The notes below the pieces were generated by a model. The model worked only from the letters and a program-made list of their open reading frames with translations, was not told where the DNA came from and ran no database searches. The position numbers were made by a program, and so were the translations under genes. DNA of 64,000 nucleotides from an uncultured bacterium (GTDB lineage: Bacteria; Bacillota_I; Bacilli_A; RF39; UBA660). The stretch covers positions 88,117 through 152,116 of the forward strand of contig CAMPCD010000001.1 of NCBI GenBank assembly GCA_946643435.1. Reading direction: 5' to 3'. Positions 42,725-62,652 of the stretch are shown here, in pieces. Numbering within the stretch: position 1 is the first letter of the stretch; each line of letters starts with the position of its first letter.

Positions 42725-43060
42725 TCAATAAGATATTTCAATTATATTGACTATATCATTGTCAGGTATCTCATACTCAAACTTAACATAATTATCATTA
42801 TTTGATAATTTATTATTATCTATTGGTAATTGAAACTCTTTATTTAAGTCTTTATATAGATATATAATCATCTTATTTAGCATGTCAATATTCATCATAG
42901 ATTCTTTATTTTCTTTATTTAAAATACACTTTGTAATATTAAATCTATAAATATTATCATCTATAGTAAAATTAATAACATCTTCTTTCATGAAGTAAGT
43001 AGTTTTTACATTCATTATTACTTCATCATTAGTAGATAACTTAAAAGTAAGTTCTTTCAT
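42725..43060 (-). CDS. Hypothetical protein (111 aa)
   Basis: ORF between parB and rpoE. No motifs. Confidence 0.45.
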   Translation of the reverse strand: MKELTFKLSTNDEVIMNVKTTYFMKEDVINFTIDDNIYRFNITKCILNKENKESMMNIDMLNKMIIYLYKDLNKEFQLPIDNNKLSNNDNYVKFEYEIPDNDIVNIIEISY

Positions 43061-43122
43061 TAAATCACCACATTTCGTTTATAGATTATAGCATAATAAA
43101 AAGACTAATTGAATAGTCTTTT

Positions 43123-44265
43123 TTATTTATTTTCTTCTTTTTGTTCTTCTTCAGGATTTTTAACTATCTTAACTACTATTTGATATATATCACTGAAATT
43201 AAATTCTTCAGTCTTTACTTCAATATTATTTTCAATAGCTAATTTAACTAATTCATTTATTGCTTTAGTCAATTCTCTTGGAGTATAAACATCCATGTTG
43301 ATTTTCTTTTCTTCCTCTTGTTGTGCAGCTTCAGATCCTTGAATTGGTATATCTAATTCATCATCTGTTTGTTGATCTTCTAAATCTACAAAATCTTCAT
43401 CAGATATTATGTTTTGTGTTTTCATTGGATCAAAACCAAATGATAATGTTGGATCTTCCATAGTTGCAGGATGATTTTCTAGATTGTTAAAAAATAAACT
43501 CTTTTTTGTGTTTTTATCATTAATTTTAGATCTATATTGATACTCTTTTGGTGTTATTGATAGATTAAAATCATCATCTTCTAGTAATAAATTAGATACA
43601 TCTATATCATTTCTAGAGTCTATATTAATTCCACCAGTTAGATTTTCTTCTTTTTTATAAGTACCTAATACTTTATCTATTTCATCTTCTACTTGTCTAA
43701 CAGTTAATTTATCTCTAATTATTTCATTAAGAATATCTACTTGTTTCATTTTATCAGTTAATCTTAATAAACTCTTAGCATGTTTAACTGATATCATATT
43801 CTTTTGTAATGCATCTTGTACTGCTTCATCTAATGATAATAATCTTATCTTATCATTTAGATTTGATTGAGTAGTTCCCATACGAGCAGCTAATTGATCA
43901 ATTGTTATATATCCTTTATCTAATAACTTTTTATATCCTCTAGCTTCATCAATAGGAGTTAAATCTTTTCTATGAATATTTTCTACTAAAGCTAATTCAG
44001 AAGACTCATTATCATCTATATCGCATATAATACAAGGTACTGATTGTAATCCAAGTAATTCAGCTGCTTTTAGTCTTCTTTCACCAGCTATTATTTCAAA
44101 TTTATCTTGTAATCTTCTGACAATAAGAGGTTGAACAATACCATGAGATCTAATAGATGAAGCTAATTCTTGTAATGATGATGTATCAAATTGAGTTCTT
44201 GGTTGAGCTTTATTAGGTACTAATTGGTCTACATTAATCATTCTAATTTGAGCTTCCATCTTCAT
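43123..44265 (-). CDS. parB: ParB/Spo0J-family chromosome partitioning protein with long acidic C-terminal extension; no adjacent ParA
   Basis: ParB box II GERRLKAAELLGL. HTH region. 380 aa. Immediately downstream of rsmG. Confidence 0.85.
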   Translation of the reverse strand: MKMEAQIRMINVDQLVPNKAQPRTQFDTSSLQELASSIRSHGIVQPLIVRRLQDKFEIIAGERRLKAAELLGLQSVPCIICDIDDNESSELALVENIHRKDLTPIDEARGYKKLLDKGYITIDQLAARMGTTQSNLNDKIRLLSLDEAVQDALQKNMISVKHAKSLLRLTDKMKQVDILNEIIRDKLTVRQVEDEIDKVLGTYKKEENLTGGINIDSRNDIDVSNLLLEDDDFNLSITPKEYQYRSKINDKNTKKSLFFNNLENHPATMEDPTLSFGFDPMKTQNIISDEDFVDLEDQQTDDELDIPIQGSEAAQQEEEKKINMDVYTPRELTKAINELVKLAIENNIEVKTEEFNFSDIYQIVVKIVKNPEEEQKEENK

Positions 44266-44345
44266 GATAACCCTCTCCTATTCTATATATAATTATATTA
44301 TTATGACTATTTATTTTCAATAATAAAAGAAGTATTGCTACTTCT

Positions 44346-45053
44346 TTATTTTGTTTTAATATCTTTTACAATGTCTTTATAATCTCTAGGATATTTATCA
44401 GGACATTTATCTATTTTTTTAATAACTATTATATTTCTTATATCTCCATTAGGAAGATTAAAAGAAATAACATTTTCTAAATTACCTTTTATCTTTTTAA
44501 TTATATCTTTTGCTTTAGGTAATTCTTCATCAATTATACCTTTTAAAGGTATAAAATAACCATTTACTTTAACTAAAGGTAAACATAATTCAGTTAATTC
44601 TTGCATATTCTTAACAGCTCTAGCAGTAACTACATCATATTTATCTTTATTATTCTTAGCATATATTTCAGATCTTTCATGAATTGTTTCTACATTATTT
44701 ATACCTAATTTAATAGTTAATTCATTTAAGAAATTAATTCTTTTATTATTACTATCTAATAAAGTAACCTTTATATTAGGAAATAATATAGCAATTACCA
44801 TTCCTGGAAAACCTGCTCCTGTACCAACATCTATTAAAGTATTAACTTTATTTAAATCTATTGCTTTAACAATAGTTAAACTATCATAGAAGTGTTTTAA
44901 ATATACATCTTCTTTTTCGGTAATAGATGTTAAATTAGTATGATTATTATATTCAACTAAATAATTATAATAAATATCAAGTTTATTAAGAATATCATCA
45001 TTAATACTAATGTTTAAATCTTTTAAGTTTTTAACAAATTCTTCTATATTCAT
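44346..45053 (-). CDS. rsmG: 16S rRNA m7G527 methyltransferase RsmG (GidB)
   Basis: SAM fold GTGAGFPGMVIAILFP. Position after mnmG. Confidence 0.9.
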   Translation of the reverse strand: MNIEEFVKNLKDLNISINDDILNKLDIYYNYLVEYNNHTNLTSITEKEDVYLKHFYDSLTIVKAIDLNKVNTLIDVGTGAGFPGMVIAILFPNIKVTLLDSNNKRINFLNELTIKLGINNVETIHERSEIYAKNNKDKYDVVTARAVKNMQELTELCLPLVKVNGYFIPLKGIIDEELPKAKDIIKKIKGNLENVISFNLPNGDIRNIIVIKKIDKCPDKYPRDYKDIVKDIKTK

Positions 45054-45054
45054 A

Positions 45055-46896
45055 TTACTTATTATATTCTTTCTTTAAATATACTGTTAAAACAGATATA
45101 TCAGCAGGATTAACTCCTGATATACGAGAAGCTTGGGCAATAGTTAAAGGCATAACTTGTTTAAGTTTTTGTCTTGCTTCACTAGCTAAATTCTTAATAT
45201 CATCATAATTAATATCTGATGGTATTTCTTTTTCTTCTAGTTTTAACATTCTTTCAACTTCTTTATTAGTCTTATTAATATATCCTTCATATTTAACTTG
45301 TATTTCTACTATATTAAATATTTCATCAGTATAACTATTAGTTATATATTCTTTTAAGTAATCTATTTTAATTTCAGGTCTCTTTAATAAATCATATAAA
45401 GATTCACCTTTAGTTAATTCACCAATATATTTATTAGTATTCTTATTAGTTATTCTTATTTCTTTTAATTCATTAACTAATTGATTAATATCAGCTATCT
45501 TTTTATTTAATCTAGCATATTGTTCTTCATCTATAGTACCTACTTCATATCCATGTTTTCTTAATCTTAAATCTGCATTATCATGTCTTAAGATTAATCT
45601 ATATTCAGCACGTGAAGTTAATAATCTATATGGTTCTTTAGTACCTTTTGTAGTTAAATCATCTAATAATACACCAATATAAGATTCATTTCTCTTTAAT
45701 ATTAAAGGATCTTTACCTTGGCATCTTAAACCTGCATTTATACCTGCAATTAAGCCTTGTCCTGCTGCTTCTTCATATCCTGAAGTACCATTTATTTGTC
45801 CTGCAGTATATAAATTCTTAATTATCTTTGATTCTTCTGATGGATACATTTGTAATGGATTAATAGCATCATATTCAATAGCATATGCATATTTAAGTAT
45901 TTTTACATGCTCTAATCCTTTTAATGAATGTACCATCTTATCTTGTACATCTATAGGCATAGATGTTGAGAATCCTTGTAAATATAAATCAGGATAATAT
46001 GCTGATTCAGGTTCAAGGAATAATTGATGTCTTTCTTTATCTTTAAATCTTACTACTTTATCTTCAATAGAAGGACAATAACGAGGTCCAATACCTTCTG
46101 CATATCCTCCATACATAGCTGATCTATCAAGATTATCCATTATAATCTTATGAGTTTCTTTATTTGTATATACAATATAACAAGGAACTTGTTTATCTAC
46201 ATCATATTGAGGTTCTAAATCAAATGAGAATGTCCAAGGAGTTTTATCTCCTTCTTCTTTCTCTAAAACTGAATAATCAACTGTATCTGGATCTAATCTT
46301 TGAGGAGTACCAGTTTTTAATCTTTGTATTTCAAAACCTAACTCTCTTAATTTATCTGATAAATGTTTAGAAGATTCTTCTCCATGAGGTCCTTCAAACT
46401 TAAATTTATCACCTACTAATATCTTAGATTTAAGATAAGTACCTGTAGTTAATACTAAAGTCTTACACTTATATACATTACCTTCTGCTGTAATAACACC
46501 TTTAATAGTTTTATCTTCAACTATTAAATCTTCTACCATACCTTGTACTATTGTTAAATTTTTTAATTTATTTAAAGCTTTTACCATATTTTTAGGATAA
46601 ATAACTTTATCACCTTGTGCTCTTAATGATTTAACAGCTGGTCCTTTACCTGAATTAAGCATTTTAATTTGTAAATGAGATATATCAGCTATTCTTCCCA
46701 TTAAACCACCTAAAGCATCTATTTCTCTAACAACAATACCTTTAGCAGTTCCACCTATAGATGGATTACATGGCATATCTGCAATATTAGCTAAACTAGA
46801 TGTTATTAATAATACTTTTAGTCCCATTTTTGCTGGTGCATTAGCAGCTTCACATCCTGCATGTCCGCCACCTACAACTATTACGTCATATTCCAT
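45055..46896 (-). CDS. mnmG: tRNA uridine-5-carboxymethylaminomethyl modification enzyme MnmG (GidA)
   Basis: FAD motif MEYDVIVVGGGHAGCEAA. Start at Met with AGGTGA SD. Confidence 0.9.
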   Translation of the reverse strand: MEYDVIVVGGGHAGCEAANAPAKMGLKVLLITSSLANIADMPCNPSIGGTAKGIVVREIDALGGLMGRIADISHLQIKMLNSGKGPAVKSLRAQGDKVIYPKNMVKALNKLKNLTIVQGMVEDLIVEDKTIKGVITAEGNVYKCKTLVLTTGTYLKSKILVGDKFKFEGPHGEESSKHLSDKLRELGFEIQRLKTGTPQRLDPDTVDYSVLEKEEGDKTPWTFSFDLEPQYDVDKQVPCYIVYTNKETHKIIMDNLDRSAMYGGYAEGIGPRYCPSIEDKVVRFKDKERHQLFLEPESAYYPDLYLQGFSTSMPIDVQDKMVHSLKGLEHVKILKYAYAIEYDAINPLQMYPSEESKIIKNLYTAGQINGTSGYEEAAGQGLIAGINAGLRCQGKDPLILKRNESYIGVLLDDLTTKGTKEPYRLLTSRAEYRLILRHDNADLRLRKHGYEVGTIDEEQYARLNKKIADINQLVNELKEIRITNKNTNKYIGELTKGESLYDLLKRPEIKIDYLKEYITNSYTDEIFNIVEIQVKYEGYINKTNKEVERMLKLEEKEIPSDINYDDIKNLASEARQKLKQVMPLTIAQASRISGVNPADISVLTVYLKKEYNK

Positions 46897-46904
46897 ATAA
46901 TCAC

Positions 46905-48251
46905 CTACTTTCCTACACAAAACTTACTAAATATCTCATCTAGTAATTCTTCTTTATATGTTTCACCTATAACTTCGCCTAATAAATTATAAGTCATTTG
47001 AATATCATCTGCAATTATTTCAAATGGTAATTCATTCTTAGTATTATTTATTGATTCTTCTATAGATTCTACTGCTTTTTTAACTAATGATAATTCTCTT
47101 GCATTAGTTAAATAATTATAATTATTAGAATCTAATTCATTAAGGTTAAACATCTCAACAATTTTATTTTTTAAATTATCTAATCCTTCAGGAGTTGTAG
47201 TATTACCATATACTACTTCTTCTTTAATATCAGATAAATCTATCTTACTATCTAAATCATTCTTGTTAACAAATATAATCTTTTTAACATTATTTAAAGA
47301 ATCAAGTAATTCTTTTTCTTCAGGAGTCATATCTGTATTATTATCTAATATAAATATAACTAAATTAGCTTTATTGATTATATCTTTAGATTTATCTACA
47401 CCTATACGTTCTACTACATCATCAGTTTCTCTTATACCTGCAGTATCTATTAGATTTATTTTAATACCATTTAAACTTATAGATCCTTCAACTATATCTC
47501 TTGTAGTACCTGCAATATTAGTTACAATTGCTTTATTTTCATTTAATAAATGGTTAAGAATTGAACTTTTTCCTACATTAGGTTTTCCTACTAAAGCAAC
47601 ATCTATTCCTTCTTTTATTATTTGTGAATTATTATAACTATTAACTAAATCTTTTAATTCTTCTTTAATACTAGTTAATCCTTCTAATACTTTATCATAA
47701 GTTATTTCTTCTTCTATTTCTTCAGGATAATCAAATATTACTTCTAATTCAGCTTGTAATGATAATAATTCTTTTCTATGCTTTTTAATTAATTTAGATA
47801 AATTACCTTCTACCCTATTCATAGCTAATTTACGTGATTTTTCAGTTTCAGCTACAATTAAATCATTTATACCTTCTGCTTCAAGTAAATCAATTCTACC
47901 ATTTAAATAAGCTCTTTTAGTGAATTCTCCTGGTTCAGCTAATCTACAACCATTTAAAAGTAATAATTCTAATATCTTATTTGTAGTTGAAATACCACCA
48001 TGAGAGTTAATTTCAATAACATCTTCCATAGTAAAAGTTTTAGGAGCATCCATTTTCATGATTAATACTTCATCTACTACTTCTTCTTTATCTAATATAT
48101 GGGCATATGAAATAGTATGTGATGCTTTTTTTGTTATATCTATATCACATATTTTATTGACTATATTAAATACATCAGGTCCTGTTGCCCTAATAATTGA
48201 GATAGCACCAACACCTAAAGCAGTTGAAATTGCACAAATATTTTCATTCAT
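46905..48251 (-). CDS. mnmE: tRNA modification GTPase MnmE (TrmE)
   Basis: G1 GKPNVGKSSILN. C-terminal CVGK. ORF-track start is GTG inside the SD; ATG 9 nt downstream used. Confidence 0.9.
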   Translation of the reverse strand: MNENICAISTALGVGAISIIRATGPDVFNIVNKICDIDITKKASHTISYAHILDKEEVVDEVLIMKMDAPKTFTMEDVIEINSHGGISTTNKILELLLLNGCRLAEPGEFTKRAYLNGRIDLLEAEGINDLIVAETEKSRKLAMNRVEGNLSKLIKKHRKELLSLQAELEVIFDYPEEIEEEITYDKVLEGLTSIKEELKDLVNSYNNSQIIKEGIDVALVGKPNVGKSSILNHLLNENKAIVTNIAGTTRDIVEGSISLNGIKINLIDTAGIRETDDVVERIGVDKSKDIINKANLVIFILDNNTDMTPEEKELLDSLNNVKKIIFVNKNDLDSKIDLSDIKEEVVYGNTTTPEGLDNLKNKIVEMFNLNELDSNNYNYLTNARELSLVKKAVESIEESINNTKNELPFEIIADDIQMTYNLLGEVIGETYKEELLDEIFSKFCVGK

Positions 48252-48335
48252 ATATTTCACCCCATATAAGCAATTGTATTATATCACTTTCATAATATAA
48301 AACAAAGTAATAAAAAAACACATAAATGTGTTTTA

Positions 48336-48887
48336 TTATTTTGTGCATCCAGTAAATACAAAAGGCAAAAATAAAATAGATAATAATCCTATGACGAGTA
48401 TTATCATTGCATTATGATAACCTTTTTTTAATTGGTATAAAATAGTATAAGCCTTTTCTATTGTTTCGCTTTCATAGTTATCGCGGTAGTATTTGATTTT
48501 ATTATAATCAGCACCTAATTCTTGTAAACTAAAAGATTTAGTTTTCCAATGTTCATATTTTTTTAACATATTTGAAGCAAATATTTCTGAAATATATTCT
48601 TCTGAATTATCTATATATTCCTTAATTTTTTTATTATTAGGATATTCTATTAAATACTTATTAGCCAAATCATAACATTTTTGATAATTACCATTATCAA
48701 AATATTCTTTAAGTTCATTAATACAGTTACTAAGTTTACTATTAATATTCTTCACTGTAATAGATTCTTCATCTAATAAGGATGTTACTCCACAATAATT
48801 ACAAGTAAATTTTTCTAAATTAGAGTTAACTTCTAATTTAGCTCCACATGAAGGACAAACTAATTTTAATAATTTCATACTAATCAC
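48336..48887 (-). CDS. Zinc-ribbon protein with C-terminal TM anchor (hypothetical)
   Basis: CPSCGAKL...CNYCG zinc ribbon. C-terminal IILVIGLLSILFLPFVF. Confidence 0.55.
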   Translation of the reverse strand: MISMKLLKLVCPSCGAKLEVNSNLEKFTCNYCGVTSLLDEESITVKNINSKLSNCINELKEYFDNGNYQKCYDLANKYLIEYPNNKKIKEYIDNSEEYISEIFASNMLKKYEHWKTKSFSLQELGADYNKIKYYRDNYESETIEKAYTILYQLKKGYHNAMIILVIGLLSILFLPFVFTGCTK

Positions 48888-48940
48888 TCACTTATATACT
48901 TATTATATCAAAAATAATATAAAACAAATAAAAAAGAGGA

Positions 48941-51317: not shown

Positions 51318-52739
51318 ATGAATGTTGATGAACTTACAACTAATTTTCAGGCAACGATACAATCTAAAGTATCCAACGCATTATATAACGCATGGTTCAA
51401 GAATCTACAAATATTAGATATAGATCAATCAACTATAGTAATGTATATAGATTCAGACTTTAAGAAGAAAAAGATACTTGAAAATAGTAGTTATATAGAT
51501 ATTATAGAAAAAACTTTAAAAGATATAACTAAAAAAGATTATAATTTTGAACTTGTAACTGATTTTATGATAAATGAGGAACCTACTCCTCCTAAAATTG
51601 AAAATAATAATAATAATAATAATTTTATAAATAACTTTAATAATACTAATAATATTATTACTCAGGAAGAACAAGCTGAATATAGAAATATTAATAGTAA
51701 TTTAAATCCTAACTATAGATTTGATAACTTTATTGTTGGAGAATCAAATATGGTTGCTCAAGCTGCTGCATTGGAAGTTGCTAAAAATCCAGGTAAAACA
51801 TTTAATCCATTCTTTATATATGGTAGATCTGGAATTGGTAAAACCCATTTAATGCATGCAATTGGTAATTATATAGTAGAAAATAGTAATAAATCTGTAT
51901 TATATGTTACATCTGGACAATTCATTGAAGATTTTACTGAAATGACTAGAAAATATAATAATACTGATAATACTAGTTTAATTGAACGATTTAAAGATAA
52001 ATATCGTAATATTGATGTATTAATAATAGATGATATTCAAATGTTAAAGGATGCTAGTAAAACACAAAATGAATTCTTCCAAACATTTGATTTACTACAA
52101 AATAATAATAAACAAATAATTATATCTTCGGATACATCACCAAATGACTTAAAGATGTTTGAAGATAGACTTAAAACTAGGTTTAATTGGGGAATGACCC
52201 TAGATATTAAGCCTCCTGAATTAAGTTTAAAGATAAAAATATTAAAGAATAAGATATTAGGTATGGAAATAGCCAGTGAAATAGATGAAGATGTATATGA
52301 ATATATCGCAACTAATTCATTATCAGACGTAAGAACACTAGAAGGTGCTATAAATAGACTACTAGCCTATACTTCTCTATTCGTACCTGATAGAATTACA
52401 TTAGACTTTGCAAAAGAAGCTTTAAAAGATTACTTAGGTAATAATCAGTATACTACTAATGATTTAGCTAAAATACGAAAAGTAGTAGCTGAATACTATG
52501 ATGTTACCGAAGATTCAATAAAAAGTAAGAAAAGACAAGCAAATATCAATAAAGCAAGGCAAGTTGGTATGTACTTAGCTAGTATAACTACTGAAGAAAC
52601 AGTCGAAAAGATTGGTATTGAGTTTGGTAGAGATCATGCTACTGTACTACATGGTGTATCTAAAATAGAAGAACAATTAAAAGAAGATAAAGAACTTAGT
52701 CATGAGATATCTGAACTAAGAGATAAATTAATAAGTTAA
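51318..52739 (+). CDS. dnaA: Chromosomal replication initiator DnaA
   Basis: AAA+ Walker A GRSGIGKTHLMHA. Sensor/box VII. C-terminal DNA-binding domain ...KRQANINKARQVGMYL. Poly-Asn linker encoded by (AAT)7 at 51603-51623. Confidence 0.95.
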   Translation: MNVDELTTNFQATIQSKVSNALYNAWFKNLQILDIDQSTIVMYIDSDFKKKKILENSSYIDIIEKTLKDITKKDYNFELVTDFMINEEPTPPKIENNNNNNNFINNFNNTNNIITQEEQAEYRNINSNLNPNYRFDNFIVGESNMVAQAAALEVAKNPGKTFNPFFIYGRSGIGKTHLMHAIGNYIVENSNKSVLYVTSGQFIEDFTEMTRKYNNTDNTSLIERFKDKYRNIDVLIIDDIQMLKDASKTQNEFFQTFDLLQNNNKQIIISSDTSPNDLKMFEDRLKTRFNWGMTLDIKPPELSLKIKILKNKILGMEIASEIDEDVYEYIATNSLSDVRTLEGAINRLLAYTSLFVPDRITLDFAKEALKDYLGNNQYTTNDLAKIRKVVAEYYDVTEDSIKSKKRQANINKARQVGMYLASITTEETVEKIGIEFGRDHATVLHGVSKIEEQLKEDKELSHEISELRDKLIS

Positions 52740-54056: not shown

Positions 54057-54093
54057 CTTTTTGTTATAGTACCCATTGAAAAGGAGATGTATT

Positions 54094-54543
54094 ATGAAAA
54101 ATTATGTGATAACTGGGGATACTTTAGCTATATTACCCTACTCTACAGGATCTATTATATATGAGACTAATCAAACACTTATAATTAATAAATTACCTAA
54201 TAATATAATTAGTTATAACTGTTTATTATTTGGTTCTTCCTATAAAGGCAGAGTTAAAGGTTCTAAGAATCTAATTGGATTTAAGTATAAAAATCCTATT
54301 AGTATTAATGATAGTTTAATATTCTTTCCCACTACTTCACCTAGATTAAAGGAATGTAGCTGGATTAATTATATTAATGTTAAAAAAGTTGATTTTATTA
54401 ACAATATAAATATGACTAAAATACAGTTTATTAATGATTTAGAATTGAAATTTCATATATCAAAAAATATAATAAATAATCAAATTAATAAATCTTATAT
54501 TTTGAATAGCAAAATTCACATGAATTTAGGCTATTTTGTGTAA
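54094..54543 (+). CDS. ComK-family protein (competence transcription factor-like)
   Basis: Similar to staphylococcal/bacillary ComK across its length: YVITGDTLAILP, CLLFGSSYKGR, IFFPTTSPRLKECSWINYINVKKV, TKIQFINDLELKFHISKN. Start at Met with AAAGGAGA SD. Confidence 0.55.
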   Translation: MKNYVITGDTLAILPYSTGSIIYETNQTLIINKLPNNIISYNCLLFGSSYKGRVKGSKNLIGFKYKNPISINDSLIFFPTTSPRLKECSWINYINVKKVDFINNINMTKIQFINDLELKFHISKNIINNQINKSYILNSKIHMNLGYFV

Positions 54544-55743: not shown

Positions 55744-57688
55744 AGAACAAATAAAAGAATTAAACGCTAAAATCGATGAATATGATGATAGTGAGATTCA
55801 AGTTCTTGAAGGACTAGAGGCAGTTCGTAAAAGACCTGGTATGTATATAGGTACTACTTCTGAAAGAGGATTACATCATTTAGTTTGGGAAATTGTTGAT
55901 AATTCAATAGATGAAGCTTTAGCTGGTTTTTGTACTGATATTCAAGTAAAAATAGAGAAGGGAAATATTATATCTGTTAGAGATAATGGACGTGGTATGC
56001 CAACTGGAATGAACGAAAAAACTGGAAAATCTACAATAGAAACAATATTTACTGTATTACATGCAGGTGGTAAGTTTGGTGGAGGAGGATACAAAGTATC
56101 TGGTGGACTTCACGGAGTAGGTGCGTCTGTTGTTAATGCGTTATCTACATGGTTGGAAGTAAAAGTATATAGAGATGAAAAAGTATATTTTCAAAAATTT
56201 GAAAATGGTGGACAACCATTAGGAGCTACTACTGTTATTGATTCATGTGATAATGATATCCATGGTACAGAAGTAAGATTTAAAGCTGATCCTACTATAT
56301 TTACTGAAACTACAGTATATAATTATGCAACATTAGAACAAAGATTAAGAGAATTAGCTTTCTTAAATAAAGGATTAAGAATATCTTTAATTGATGAAAG
56401 AGAAGATGAAATAAAAAGAGCTAATTTCCATTATGAAGGTGGTATATCTGAATATGTTAAGCTATTAAATAAGAATAAAACACCAATTCATGATGTAGTT
56501 GCATTTGAAGGTGAAGAAGACGATATTTCTATTGAAATAGCTTTACAATACAATGAAGAATATAATTCAGCTATATATTCATTTACTAATAATATTAGAA
56601 CACATGAAGGTGGAACTCATGAAGATGGTGTAAAAGCTGCATTAACAAGAATTATTAATAAATATGGTAGAAATACTAATATTTTAAAAGAAAAAGATGA
56701 AGCTTTAAAAGGTGAAGATGTACAAGAAGGTTTAACTATGGTTATTTCTTGTAAACACCCAGATCCACAATTTGAGGGACAAACTAAGACTAAATTAGGT
56801 AACTCTGAAGTAAGAAAGATTGCAAGTGATGTATTTAGTGAAGGATTTGAACGTTATTTAATGGAAAATCCTGAACAAGCACGAACAATTGTTTCTAAAT
56901 GTGCTTTAGCTTCTCAAGCTAGATTAGCTGCAAAGAAGGCTAGAGAAAATACAAGAAGAAAAACAAGTTTAGATAGCATTAATTTTATGGGTAAATTGAC
57001 TGATTGTAAGTCTAAAAATGCTGAAGAGTGTGAAATATTCATAGTCGAGGGTAATTCCGCTGGTGGTTCTGCTAAAATGGGTAGAGATTATATGACTCAA
57101 GCAGTATTACCATTAAGAGGAAAAATATTAAATGTTGAAAAAGCTAGATTAGATAGAGCTTTAAATAATGAAGAAATAAAATCTATGATTACTGCATTTG
57201 GTACAGGAATTGGTGAAGATTTTGATGTTAATAAATTAAGATATCATAAAATAATTATCATGACTGATGCCGATGTTGATGGTGATCACATCAGAACATT
57301 ATTATTAACATTATTCTATAGATTCTTTAAACCTATAGTTGAAGGTGGATATGTATATGCAGCTCAACCTCCATTATTTAAGGTTACATATGGTAAAAAG
57401 ACAGTTTTAGTTCAAACTGAAAATGATTTACCTAAAGTATTAGAAGAAATACCTGAAAAATATAGAAATAATGTAATAATTAACCGATTCAAAGGTTTAG
57501 GTGAAATGAATCCAGAAGAATTAAGAGATACAACAATGTCTAAAACAAATAGAGTTTTAAGAAGAATCACAGTTGATGATGCAATGGCAGCTGATGAAGC
57601 ATTTAGCTTATTGATGTCAGATAATGTTGAACCAAGACGTGATTTCATTGTTGAAAATGCTGGATATGTTAAGAATTTAGATATATAG
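55736..57688 (+). CDS. gyrB: DNA gyrase subunit B
   Basis: GHKL ATPase, TOPRIM ([14 protein letters not shown]), C-terminal tail. 650 aa. Confidence 0.95.
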
Positions 57689-57700
57689 GAGGTTTGAAAC

Positions 57701-60283
57701 ATGGATGATAAAGAATTAGAAATAAATGAAGTAGAAGAAGTTCAAGAATCTGATGTCGAAGATGATGAACTTGAAGAAGAAACTGTTTCAACTTCTGTAG
57801 CAAATGATGAAATGGTTGATAATGATATTGTTAAAGAAATTAAAGATTCATTTTTACAATATTCAATGTCAGTTATAGTATCTCGTGCTTTACCAGACTT
57901 AAGAGATGGTTTAAAACCAGTTCATAGAAGAATACTATATTCAATGTATGAAAATGGTATTACACCTGATAAACCACATAGAAAATGTGCTACTACTGTA
58001 GGAGCCGTTATGGGTGCTTACCATCCACATGGTGATACATCTATATATGATGCTTTAGCTAGAATGGCTCAAGATTTCTCATATAGATATCTATTAATAG
58101 ATGGACATGGTAACTTTGGTTCTATGGATGGTGATGATCCTGCAGCTATGCGTTATACTGAAGCAAGATTAGCAAAATTATCACTAGAAATGACTAGAGA
58201 TATTAAAAAAGATACTATTGATTTTGTAGATAACTTTGATGCTACAAGAAAAGAACCAACAGTATTACCTTCAAGATTTCCTAATATATTAGTAAATGGT
58301 ACTATGGGTATTGCTGTAGGTATGGCAACAAATATACCTCCACATAATTTAAGAGAAGTAGTAAATGGATGTGTTGCTGTATTAGACAATCCTGATATTG
58401 ACTTAGATGAATTAATGACTATAGTTAAAGGTCCAGATTTTCCTACAGGAGCAATAATACTTGGAAATTCAGGTATTAGAAAAGCTTATGCTACAGGAAA
58501 AGGTACAATAACTATAAGAGGTAAGGTAGAAATACAAGAAAAACAAAATCATAGTTTAATTGTTATTACTGAAATACCTTATGGTGTTAATAAGAAAGAA
58601 TTACAAACAAAAATAGCTGAATTAGTTAGAGATAAAGTTATTGAAGGTATATCTGATTTACATGAAGAAACAAACCTAGAAAATGGTATTAAAATTGTTG
58701 TTACATGTAAGAAAGATGCTAATGCTAATGTAATTTTAAATAATTTATATAAATCAACACCATTACAAATAACATATGGTATTAACTTCTTAATGCTTGA
58801 TAATGGTATTCCTAAAACATTAGGACTAAAAGATATATTAATTAAATATACAAATTATCAAAAAGAAATTATTATTAGACGTACAAGATATGATCTAGGA
58901 CAAGCTGAAAATAGAGTACATATTTTAGATGGTGAAATAATTGCTATCAATAATATTGATGATTTCGTACATATTATTCGTGGTTCTAGAACAGATCAAG
59001 AAGCTAAGAGTAGATTAGAAGAAAAATATGGACTAGATAATATTCAATCTGAAGATATCTTACAAATGCGTTTAAGAAAGTTAACTGGTCTTGAATTAGA
59101 TAAAGTCACTGAAGAACGTGATGGATTATTAAAGGATATTGAAATGTATAATGCTATATTAAACTCTGATGAAATGGTAAGAGATGTTGTTAAGAAAGAA
59201 TTATTAGATATTGCTAATAGATTTGGTGATGAAAGACGTACTCATATTGATATGACTGCAATTGATTATATTGAAGATGAATCATTAATACCTGAAGAAA
59301 ATATAATAATTACATTAACTGATAAAGGTTATATTAAGAGATTATCATCTGATACATACCGTGAACAAAATCGTGGTGGTGTAGGAGTTAAAGGAATGAC
59401 TACTAACGAAGATGATTATGTTAAATTCTTAATTAATTCTTCAACTCATGATTATGTATGTATTTTCACTAATAAAGGAAGAATTTATAGATTAAAAGGA
59501 TATGAAATACCTGAATATGGTAGAAATGCTAAGGGATTACCAATTATTAACTTAATTCAAATAGAAAAAGATGAAAAAGTTAATGCAATAATCAATGTTT
59601 CACGTGAAACATCAGCTCAATATACAGTATTTGCTACTAAACAAGGTATTATTAAGAAGACTCCTAACTCTGAATTTGAAAATATTAGAAAGTCTGGTAA
59701 GATTGCTATTACGTTACATGAAGGTGATGAATTAATAGATGTTAAGTTATCAGATGGAAAACAAAATATTATTTTAGGATCTACAACAGGTAAGATTGTA
59801 GTATTTGATGAAAATGAAATTAGACCAATGGGTAGAACAGCTACTGGTGTTAAGGGTATTAACCTTGATGGTGGTGAATGTACTGGTATGGAAGTTGGAA
59901 CTGACGATGATAACTTATTAGTTATTTCTCGTAATGGATACGGTAAGCGTACATTTGTAAAAGATTATCGTAAGACTAAACGTGGTTCTAAAGGCGTATT
60001 AAGTATTAAAGCTACTGATAAAACCGGTGGTATGATAGCTCACAAGATTGTAGATAACGATAAATCATTATTAATTGTAACTGAACAAGGTATGATTATT
60101 AGAATAAGTGTTGATTCAATATCTCAATTAAATAGAGTTACTCAAGGTGTAAGATTAATTAATCTTAAAGATGATCAATATGTTTCTACAGTAAGTATTA
60201 TTTCTAAGGAAGAAGAACCTGAAGAAATGGTAGATGAAACTACAGAATCATCTAATGAAGAAATAAAGGAAGAGACTGAATAA
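57701..60283 (+). CDS. gyrA: DNA gyrase subunit A
   Basis: Active-site region [35 protein letters not shown]-terminal beta-pinwheel. 860 aa. Confidence 0.95.
59595..59612. promoter_or_regulatory. parS site inside gyrA coding sequence
   Basis: ATGTTTCACGTGAAACAT, an exact match to the four intergenic copies. Encodes NVSRET. Confidence 0.7.
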
Positions 60284-60296
60284 TCTCTTCTTTTTT
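60269..60296 (+). terminator. gyrA rho-independent terminator
   Basis: GAAGAGA-ctgaataa-TCTCTTC hairpin overlapping stop, then T6. Confidence 0.65.
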
Positions 60297-60300
60297 ATTA

Positions 60301-60322
60301 CAATGTTTCACGTGAAACATTG
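60301..60322. promoter_or_regulatory. parS site 1 (CAATGTTTCACGTGAAACATTG)
   Basis: Perfect 22-bp palindrome containing 16-bp parS consensus TGTTTCACGTGAAACA. Confidence 0.8.
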
Positions 60323-60343
60323 TAATGTGAATAAAATATAATA

Positions 60344-60367
60344 TATATGTTTCACGTGAAACATATG
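60344..60367. promoter_or_regulatory. parS site 2 (CATATGTTTCACGTGAAACATATG)
   Basis: Perfect 24-bp palindrome with parS core. Confidence 0.8.
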
Positions 60368-60384
60368 AGAAAATAAAAATAGTA

Positions 60385-60414
60385 TTTCTAATGTTTCACG
60401 TGAAACATTAGAAA
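60385..60414. promoter_or_regulatory. parS site 3 (TTTCTAATGTTTCACGTGAAACATTAGAAA)
   Basis: Perfect 30-bp palindrome with parS core. Confidence 0.8.
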
Positions 60415-60482
60415 TGATACAAATAAATTAAACTAACAAATGAATTATTTATTAATTTTTTTTTACTTATATATGTGACAAG

Positions 60483-60506
60483 TCAATGTTTCACGTGAAA
60501 CATTGA
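60483..60506. promoter_or_regulatory. parS site 4 (TCAATGTTTCACGTGAAACATTGA), abutting ffs promoter
   Basis: Perfect 24-bp palindrome ending 10 bp upstream of the -35 TTGTTA. Confidence 0.8.
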
Positions 60507-60515
60507 TAATAATTC

Positions 60516-60544
60516 TTGTTAATAATTAATAAATAAGATATAAT
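60516..60544 (+). promoter_or_regulatory. Promoter of SRP RNA gene
   Basis: TTGTTA(60516-60521)-17 nt-TATAAT(60539-60544). G at 60551 about 7 nt downstream. Confidence 0.6.
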
Positions 60545-60550
60545 TAAATT

Positions 60551-60627
60551 GCGCAACGATTATATTATAAACTGGTCAGGACAGGAATGTAGCAGCCACA
60601 TTAATCCCTAGTCGTGTGCGCTTTTTT
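60551..60627 (+). ncRNA. ffs: Small signal recognition particle RNA (4.5S/scRNA-type, domain IV hairpin)
   Basis: GGTCAGGACAGGAATGTAGCAGCC matches the SRP domain IV consensus GGUCAGGUCCGGAAGGAAGCAGCC with a GGAA tetraloop closed by ACA/TGT. Terminal helix GCGCAACGA/TCGTgTGCGC followed by T6. Located before tadA-dnaX as scr is in Bacillus. Confidence 0.65.
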
Positions 60628-60642
60628 AGTGAGATGATTTAT

Positions 60643-61098: not shown

Positions 61099-62652
61099 AT
61101 GAACTACAAGGTATTATACAGAAAATATAGACCATCTAACTTTGATCAATTAATAGGTCAAGATAGCATAGTTAAAATTCTTAAAAACTCAATAATTGAA
61201 GATAAAATAGCGCATGCTTATATATTTACTGGACCTAGAGGTACTGGTAAAACTAGTACTGCTAAATTATTTGCAAAAGCGTTAAATTGTCCTAATGCAA
61301 AGAATGGTATACCTTGTGAAGAATGTTCAAATTGTATTAATTTTGCTACTTCTCCTGATATTATTGAATTAGATGCTGCATCTAATAATGGAGTAGAGTA
61401 TATAAGAGAGATTAAAGATAATGTTTTAATAGCTCCTACATCTTCTAAATATAAAATATACATAATTGATGAGGTTCATATGTTATCAAATGCAGCATGG
61501 AATGCATTCTTAAAAACACTTGAAGAACCACCTCAAAATGTAATATTTATATTGGCTACAACTGAAATACAAAAAGTTCCTATTACTGTATTATCTCGTT
61601 GTCAAAGATTTGATTTTAATAGAATTGATAGAGAACTTATACAAAAACATTTAAAAAAAATATGTGATTTAGAAAATATATCTTATAAAGAAGATGCCAT
61701 AGTTGAAATATCATATTTATCAGATGGTTGCATGCGTGATGCATTAAGTATATTGGATCAATTATCTAAGGTTTCAGATGATATAAACATGGATATATTA
61801 AAACAAAACTATGGTACTGTAACAAAAAATGATGTTGATAAAATATATTCTGATATTTTAAAAAATGATTTAGATTCATTAGTTAATGATATAAATACAA
61901 TTAAAGAATCTGGAGTAGATATTAAAATATTAATTAATAAGATGATAGAAAACTACATTAATAAGGCTATTGAAATGAAAAAGAAAAGTTTAAGTAATGC
62001 TTCTTTTACTCATATCAAGTCTGTTATAAGTGTATTAAATGAACTTTTAACTAATATTTCTACAACAACTAATGGATATTTAATACTAGAATTAAATTTA
62101 TTATCTTTTATTAATTCTGAGGATAATAGATTAAGTAGTAGAGAAGTAGAACAAATATTATCTAAGGAAATAATTCCAAGTAATATATATGAAAATGAAA
62201 GTTCTTATTACAACATTAATAAAGAATTTATAGATATAAGAGTCAATAATGCTTTTGTTGGAGCTTCTAAAGAATTAAAGGCAGAATTTATTAATAACTG
62301 GAATACATTCGTAAAAAATATAAAAGCAAATGATATTAAAGAATTATATTCAGTTACAAAAGATTCTGAACCTGTAGTAGTATCACCTACAAATGTTATT
62401 ATTACAAATAAAAGAGCAGCTATAGCTGATGTTGGAAATCATAAGCTAGATACTGTTGAAAATAAGTTTAATCAAGAGTTTAAAACTAATCTTAAATTTA
62501 TTTACTTAACACAAAGTGAATGGACTAAGATTGCTAAAACATTTGATAAAAACAAAAAATATGAATTGATTGATGATTCAAAATTTATAAATAATGTAGA
62601 TTCACAAGGTCTTGCTGAAGAAATATTTGGCGATAATGTGAATGTAGAATAG
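61099..62652 (+). CDS. dnaX: DNA polymerase III subunit gamma/tau
   Basis: AAA+ GPRGTGKTS. Zn motif CxxC...CxxC. SRC motif. 517 aa. Confidence 0.9.
   Translation: MNYKVLYRKYRPSNFDQLIGQDSIVKILKNSIIEDKIAHAYIFTGPRGTGKTSTAKLFAKALNCPNAKNGIPCEECSNCINFATSPDIIELDAASNNGVEYIREIKDNVLIAPTSSKYKIYIIDEVHMLSNAAWNAFLKTLEEPPQNVIFILATTEIQKVPITVLSRCQRFDFNRIDRELIQKHLKKICDLENISYKEDAIVEISYLSDGCMRDALSILDQLSKVSDDINMDILKQNYGTVTKNDVDKIYSDILKNDLDSLVNDINTIKESGVDIKILINKMIENYINKAIEMKKKSLSNASFTHIKSVISVLNELLTNISTTTNGYLILELNLLSFINSEDNRLSSREVEQILSKEIIPSNIYENESSYYNINKEFIDIRVNNAFVGASKELKAEFINNWNTFVKNIKANDIKELYSVTKDSEPVVVSPTNVIITNKRAAIADVGNHKLDTVENKFNQEFKTNLKFIYLTQSEWTKIAKTFDKNKKYELIDDSKFINNVDSQGLAEEIFGDNVNVE

Follow-up and report, generated by a model that had tools for sequence, protein, structure and literature searches.

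A ParB-family gene, here called the ParBx gene, lies directly behind rsmG in a 64,000-nucleotide (nt) stretch of DNA from an uncultured bacterium (contig CAMPCD010000001.1, positions 88,117 to 152,116), which was analysed over its whole length and is referred to as the window. The protein is probably, at about two chances in three, a clamp of the Noc lineage that represents a new architectural variant, with the parS array of the same window belonging to a separate ParB. As judged from homology searches, it belongs to a large family, not described before, that comes from uncultured gut Bacilli and is without the N-terminal membrane helix of Noc. ParBx combines an intact ParB/Noc cytidine triphosphate (CTP)-binding N-domain, a Noc-type helix-turn-helix (HTH) and a Noc-type C-terminal dimerisation domain (CTD). 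Family members would load, as Noc does, as CTP-dependent clamps at Noc-binding sites (NBS) scattered over the chromosome, and the parS arrays found after gyrA would be read by a canonical ParB encoded outside the regions seen. ParBx departs from Noc in two ways. The membrane helix is missing, and a 117-amino acid (aa) linker between HTH and CTD carries a conserved motif, [SN][KL]FFN.LE, as a putative effector; in addition, the recognition helix is drifting in this species and its closest relatives.

Lineage and domain architecture of ParBx

A sequence search of the PDB with ParBx ranked the Noc chains 7NG0 (Geobacillus, 179 bits) and 7OL9 (B. subtilis, 157 bits) above the Spo0J chains 1VZ0 (150 bits) and 6SDK (145 bits). 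Foldseek with the AlphaFold2 (AF2) model of ParBx gave the same order, with Noc chains at the top (E 1e-20). In a neighbour-joining (NJ) tree over 197 columns with 200 bootstraps, the ParBx family and Noc form one clade (100% bootstrap), and B. subtilis Spo0J and the Thermus and Myxococcus ParBs fall outside of it. A hidden Markov model (HMM) of the C-terminal 53 residues of the family matches the last 42 residues of B. subtilis Noc (242-283) at 32 bits and Spo0J at -2.8 bits. The B. subtilis Noc sequence used here was validated at 373 bits over the whole NCBIfam Noc model, TIGR04285. In AF2 the CTD of ParBx folds into a helix (329-345) and two strands (350-356 and 361-367).

The ParBx gene also occupies the noc slot, directly 3′ of rsmG in the origin (ORI) cluster, and noc has been inferred for the ancestral Firmicutes ORI cluster (PMC8136486). 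The main text of Garcia et al. 2021 makes no statement on Noc or ParAB in Erysipelotrichia. An earlier reading, made from the sequence only, had offered Noc-like action as one possibility and a phylogeny against Noc and Spo0J as a check; the fold and sequence rankings, the tree, the CTD and the gene position all agree with that suggestion.

The TIGR04285 score was tried as a Noc discriminator and dropped, because true Spo0J reaches 257 bits. Noc itself scores 373 bits and members of the ParBx family 267-294 bits. The match of ParBx is split by the linker insertion.

Full-length homologues of ParBx are 360-400 aa long, range down to 46% identity, and come from gut metagenome-assembled genomes labelled ‘Bacilli bacterium’ or ‘Erysipelotrichales bacterium’. 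The GTDB representatives do not include the species of the window, and the best match among them has 70% identity. An exhaustive search with the N-terminal 205 residues yielded 150 representatives, all with short N-termini and nearly all 313-744 aa in length; the few shorter ones look truncated, and the 46 of the 150 that were inspected share the ParBx architecture. A second search gave at least 8000 family proteins at E <= 1e-30 (8000 of 8000 scored candidates).

Pfam places ParB_N at residues 6-98 (E 8.6e-32) and HTH_ParB at residues 100-198 (E 4.7e-28). The motifs of the CTP domain are QPR (21-23), GERR (G61 E62 R63 R64) and ENIHR (95-99), and are invariant in the alignments, as are G61, R63 and R64 within GERR. 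Thus the CTP-binding GERR pocket, which the sequence-only reading had named for inspection, is present. The Noc-like N-terminal amphipathic helix, named alongside it, is absent. In B. subtilis Noc the membrane-targeting amphipathic helix comprises residues 1-10, with K2, F5, R7, F8 and F9 functionally important (PMC4331003, PMC8429893). ParBx has 5 residues only ahead of strand β1. The N-terminus cannot be extended, since an in-frame TAG stands 15 nt 5′ of the ATG, and a Noc membrane helix is therefore not encodable. ParBx is likewise without an N-terminal ParA-stimulating peptide and without an adjacent parA gene.

The linker has a net charge of -19 and consists to 25% of aspartate and glutamate. 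Two AF2 runs, with 28 and 113 sequences, were both confident for residues 1-200, and in both models the linker has a predicted local distance difference test score (pLDDT) of <50, residues 208-321 being disordered. Neither the linker alone nor the CTD alone has a Pfam or NCBIfam match, even at E 10. About 100 aa of extra length had been read from the sequence, as acidic, low-complexity material ahead of the C-terminal region. The extra length stands (380 aa against 282 aa for Spo0J), as do the acidity and the position, but the insert is not merely of low complexity: residues 256-283 form a motif that hardly varies.

The motif has the form KK-SLFFNNLEN-x5-(M)DPTLSFGFNPF, in which F259, N260, L262, E263 and G277 are invariant (n=28). 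Among the linkers of close family members 25 of 28 have it, where shuffling predicts 0.5, and among those of the broader family 23 of 42, where shuffling predicts 0.7. In the broader family it takes the form [NG][KR]FF(N.LEDE..NM), sometimes in two or three copies. In both AF2 models the pLDDT of the motif remains below 50-66, and no docking onto the N-domain is seen. The FF motif resembles the Noc membrane helix, but an amphipathic helix is no more than a lead here, with a hydrophobic moment of 0.18-0.32 against 0.43 for the Noc N-terminus. Candidate roles for the motif are membrane anchor, partner docking or intramolecular regulator. With low confidence, we suggest that it may be the effector element, acting as a membrane anchor that has been relocated or as a peptide on which a partner docks.

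Recognition helix, NBS and parS sites

The recognition region of ParBx reads G130 T T Q133 S N L N D138 K139 I R L L S144 ... V K161 H A K164, and its residues Q133, D138, K139, S144, K161 and K164 correspond to Caulobacter positions 173, 178, 179, 184, 201 and 204. The specificity set of Noc is Q-K-K-R and that of ParB is R-x-x-G, with R173 invariable in parS-specific variants (Jalal et al. 2020, PMC7383237). According to the same study, Q173 reads the adenine at position 1 and R201 the cytosine at position 6 of NBS, a single K at 179 or 184 suffices for these two residues to read NBS, and parS binders need a small residue at position 201 (PMC7383237). ParBx has Q-K-S-K with D at 178, as against the Q-K-K-R of Noc. 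It departs from the rule for parS binders at two positions, with Q133 where R173 is expected and K161 where a small residue (G201) is expected. By these rules, and as far as sequence can tell, ParBx should not recognise the canonical parS sites in its neighbourhood.

Q-K-x-R is found in 373 of 402 family members, N at position 178 in 380 of 402, and Q-K-x-R again in 24 of 24 GTDB relatives. The 25 recognition-helix deviants among the 402 are almost entirely within the subclade of ParBx itself, where position 173 may also be P, V, T, N, M, I or A, and is never R. ParBx differs from the family at four residues, T132 (S in the family), D138 (N), K161 (R) and K164 (R), and all four positions are listed as DNA-contacting (PMC7383237).

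NBS were searched with the consensus ATTTCCCGGGAAAT, a perfect site being 16 bp. Perfect NBS are found in four independent related genomes (L006, L035, L036 and L047), whereas 1.7e-4 would be expected by chance over all 569 kb examined. In the dnaX gene of relatives, a perfect NBS (TATTTCCCGGGAAATA) is located at L035 13824, L036 13164 and L034 5812. It is written ATT TCC CGG GAA ATA (peptide ISREI) and uses rare codons, CGG accounting for 1.1% of Arg and TCC for 3.2% of Ser codons in these genomes. At this position the dnaX of the window has ATA TTA TCT AAG GAA ATA, encoding LSKEI with common codons. In L006 and L047 the perfect NBS is upstream of mnmG, in L047 within the jag-mnmE spacer. Overlaps between L035 and L009 (99.6%) and between L036 and L007 (100% identity) show that each pair represents one genome. 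These two genomes, L009+L035 and L007+L036, have QKQR and QKTR proteins, perfect NBS, and seven and four parS sites after gyrA.

An NBS-like sequence, TATTTCTATTGAAATA, is present inside gyrB of the window (56524-56539). It has the outer half-sites with A at position 1 and an AT-only, non-palindromic centre, and is conserved in the same species (L033 6991). As a single occurrence, it may be due to chance.

The dense parS array that had been noted near the ParBx gene is confirmed: five perfect sites start at 59596, 60304, 60348, 60392 and 60487, about 16 kb from the gene, against 0.21 expected by chance. An array between gyrA and the signal recognition particle (SRP) RNA gene/dnaX is conserved in loci recovered via the GyrA C-terminus, with five sites in L033 (same species), two in the short fragment L037, seven in L034/L035 and four in L036. 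It persists in the genomes of the ParBx subclade examined (window, L033 and L037). The four intergenic sites of the window (60298-60510) are each embedded in a longer palindrome, and these palindromes vary between the copies (ACAATG..CATTGT, ATATG..CATAT, TTTCTAATG..CATTAGAAA and TCAATG..CATTGA), such that the flanks covary and are not conserved. In L035 (10760-12130) the seven parS sites are in repeated modules of 165-285 bp, and in most modules the palindrome ACGTAA(A/T)TACGT is present as well, together with a hairpin rich in GC (AGCGCAGC...GCTGCGCG). Directly after the array of the window, and before dnaX, is a bacterial small SRP RNA (60541-60635; Rfam RF00169, 59.7 bits).

The drift of the recognition helix, together with the lost dnaX NBS, indicates that the DNA target of ParBx is altered or weakened, and suggests that the protein is changing or losing its DNA address. 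Since the helix has drifted without a loss of parS, ParBx would not be the parS reader. The clade keeps perfect NBS as well as perfect parS arrays, so that two readers are needed; a Q-K-x-R protein fits the NBS, and we infer a canonical ParB elsewhere. Thus the parS sites are probably read by a different, canonical ParB. The layout in S. aureus is of this type: noc is next to rsmG, and an orphan parB is at another locus.

Several points weigh against this reading. The defining membrane helix of Noc is absent in ParBx, whose TIGR04285 score of 244 bits (over model positions 1-202) is under the cut-off of 315, although the model does not discriminate between Noc and Spo0J. The tree is an NJ tree with only five reference sequences. 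The specificity rules come from a Caulobacter ParB scaffold, and their transfer may be inexact. There is no NBS within 2 mismatches in the 64-kb window, and parS is the sole recurrent GC-containing palindrome there; an unbiased palindrome search of the window for an alternative binding site gave nothing else that recurs. The second ParB was not found, and the window with extensions of about 13 kb holds ParBx as the only ParB-family gene. With regard to the linker, the best match of the FF-motif HMM in Noc is SRFFGLGE (residues 6-13) at -0.1 bits, which is not significant, and binding to an anionic membrane or lipid is made less likely by the acidic residues behind the motif.

Some of these points would fit a protein that is the sole ParB of the cell. 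Such a protein would use the five parS sites near oriC for nucleation, spread from there as a CTP clamp and load SMC independently of any ParA, as in S. pneumoniae, and the linker would be only a spacer. ParBx is the only ParB-family ORF in the region seen, perfect parS sites of a kind that forms the only recurrent non-AT palindrome are 16 kb away, its CTP motifs are intact and no ParA is present. The ParB of S. pneumoniae also has a short N-terminus without a ParA-activating peptide. Systems of ParB and parS that lack ParA are documented, S. aureus and S. pneumoniae being without ParA (bioRxiv 10.64898/2026.03.06.710092). The residues argue otherwise, as Q133 replaces the invariable R and K161 the small residue that is needed (PMC7383237). 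The family moreover sides with Noc in sequence, fold, CTD and tree, relatives with the same single gene hold perfect NBS in addition to parS arrays, and in the nearest subclade position 173 is never R, while parS arrays persist in the genomes examined. We consider a sole ParB unlikely, and the ParA-independent ParB/parS system that the sequence-only reading had proposed is not supported, in view of Q133/K161, the grouping with Noc and the relatives with both kinds of site.

Slightly less likely still is that ParBx has lost sequence-specific DNA recognition and persists, through its CTPase domain, linker motif and CTD, as a non-specific clamp or scaffold that is neither a working Noc nor a working ParB: the clustering of nearly all helix deviants in its subclade, the four exchanges at DNA-contacting positions, the vanished dnaX NBS with no NBS in 64 kb, and the continued conservation of GERR, FF motif and CTD would fit, but Q133 and K139 are kept, the ORF is intact with its own promoter-like site and ribosome-binding site (RBS) and 99-100% identity across several metagenomes, known ParB-family clamps require a specific loading site, and 64 kb is too short to exclude a shifted site at about one per 40-60 kb.

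Returning to ParBx as a Noc-lineage clamp, a bolder form of this reading can be put forward tentatively, as a possibility that we hold to be less probable than not. Noc-derived CTP clamps may have swapped the N-terminal membrane switch for the [SN][KL]FFN.LE linker peptide, acting as an internal membrane anchor or as a docking site for a division or segregation partner, with the subclade of the window also losing or changing its DNA address. If true, a specificity change in the ParB family would have been caught in progress in this subclade.

Gene, locus and neighbouring features

The bacterium has a GC content of 25%, and the window covers its replication origin, as indicated by the start of dnaA at 51318; the GC skew switches near 51 kb. 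From dnaA the genes dnaN, comK, recF, gyrB and gyrA follow, and the opposite strand carries rnpA, yidC, jag, mnmE, mnmG and rsmG. Coordinates of the features are collected in Table 1. A ParB-family gene immediately after rsmG, without any ParA ORF in the 64 kb, had been recognised from the sequence, and both observations were borne out. The span given at that time, 43123-44346, extends across the 80 nt that separate the gene from the stop codon of rsmG, a gap that contains a hairpin, the promoter-like site and the RBS. Searches of the window with B. subtilis Soj by tblastn and phmmer --max returned no match with an E value below 0.1, the deviant Walker A motif KGGxGK[ST] has zero occurrences in its six frames, and there is no second ParB-family ORF in it.

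Table 1. Positions in the window of ParBx, its parts and the associated sites
Feature	Position	Strand	Basis or remark
ParBx gene (Noc-lineage ParB-family, 380 aa)	43123..44265	-	Pfam, PDB/fold ranking, tree
N-terminal CTP-binding domain, residues 1-100	43966..44265	-	Pfam ParB_N; AF2 pLDDT 70-90
Recognition region, residues 130-164 (GTTQSNLNDKIRLLSL...SVKHAK)	43774..43878	-	Gap-free alignment to Noc and Spo0J PDB chains
Disordered acidic linker, residues 206-322 (117 aa)	43300..43650	-	Charge, pLDDT
Conserved short linear motif, residues 256-283 (SLFFNNLENHPATMEDPTLSFGFDPMKT)	43417..43500	-	28-sequence alignment
Noc-type CTD, residues 323-370, then acidic tail to 380	43156..43299	-	AF2, CTD HMM
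Promoter-like TTGAAA-17-TATAAT of ParBx, RBS GGAGAGG, in-frame TAG 15 nt before ATG	44266..44320	-	
rsmG	44346..45053	-	GidB E 1.9e-51; directly upstream of ParBx gene, with mnmG and mnmE ahead of it
Five perfect parS sites (TGTTTCACGTGAAACA)	59596..60502	.	One inside gyrA, four between gyrA and SRP RNA gene
Decayed dnaX NBS position, ATTATCTAAGGAAATA	62157..62172	+	Relatives hold perfect NBS here

The order dnaA...mnmG-rsmG-ParBx-orf111-rpoE-prfA is found in 29 loci, many of which have an opposite-strand class A penicillin-binding protein (PBP) gene after ParBx. No Soj or second ParB is present within 10 kb on either side in these 29 related loci, and no ParA or ParB in an extension of approximately 5 kb to the left of the window (rplI-dnaB-M23 peptidase...) or in approximately 6 kb added from L033. 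The ORF directly downstream of the ParBx gene (42725-43060) encodes 111 aa, is conserved and has no Pfam or NCBIfam match. It travels with rpoE and not with the ParBx gene, as the class A PBP gene separates the two in most relatives. The spoIIR gene is found near prfA in relatives.

The metagenome scaffold L003 was compared with positions 42900-47300 of the window. Over mnmG and most of rsmG it shows up to about 35 differences per 100 nt (mostly 5-25), and from about 44750 to about 43000 it is 100% identical, including the ParBx gene (0 differences in 1143 nt). This mosaic is due either to a chimeric assembly or to a recent recombination that brought this ParBx allele.

Relative to L001, from the same species (99% identity), the window has about 600 bp inserted in the jag-mnmE interval (about 48315-48914). 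The insertion has a 22-bp direct repeat at its flanks and contains an ORF (48336..48887) for a 183-aa product with an N-terminal CxxC...CxxC, a hydrophobic C-terminal segment and no Pfam match. A comK homologue (54076-54543, Pfam E 6.7e-35) is located between dnaN and recF, and this position is kept in L001 and L045-L047.

Comparison with known systems

In the studies cited, the function of Noc has so far been described via the N-terminal CTP-gated membrane helix of Bacillales. The ParBx family, a large sister family, retains the CTPase, the NBS-type helix and the Noc CTD, and has a conserved peptide in a disordered linker instead of that membrane helix. It offers a test of whether Noc-type function depends on tethering to the membrane or whether other effectors can be coupled to the clamp. 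The natural series from Q-K-x-R through Q-K-S-K with D178 to scrambled helices may represent a decay or switch of ParB/Noc specificity, and is a natural complement to the deep mutational scan by Jalal et al. 2020. As a caution, the gene after rsmG in reduced Bacilli genomes should not be annotated automatically as ‘the ParB’.

With B. subtilis Spo0J, ParBx shares ParB_N and HTH_ParB, the GERR pocket and about 40% similarity over 190 aa. In contrast to Spo0J, it has no ParA partner, no N-terminal LGKG peptide and a CTD that is not lysine-rich, has Q in place of R149 (the equivalent of R173), and carries the long acidic linker.

The orphan ParBs of S. pneumoniae and S. aureus resemble ParBx in their location near oriC, the lack of ParA, the short N-terminus and the perfect origin-proximal parS sites. 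However they keep R173 and a Spo0J-type CTD, whereas ParBx has Q173, a Noc-type CTD and a place in the Noc clade.

Noc of B. subtilis, Geobacillus and S. aureus is the closest of the known systems in sequence and fold, and is similar also in clade, CTD type, Q173 and K179, the position of the gene after rsmG and the CTP-binding motifs; canonical NBS are found in the genomes of ParBx relatives. The differences are that ParBx is without the amphipathic helix and helix α2, residues 1-28 of Noc having no counterpart, has S184/K201 as against K/R, falls below the TIGR04285 cut-off and is not followed by soj-spo0J. Unlike Noc, it has the 117-aa acidic insertion with the FF motif, and proteins of the broader family reach 744 aa.

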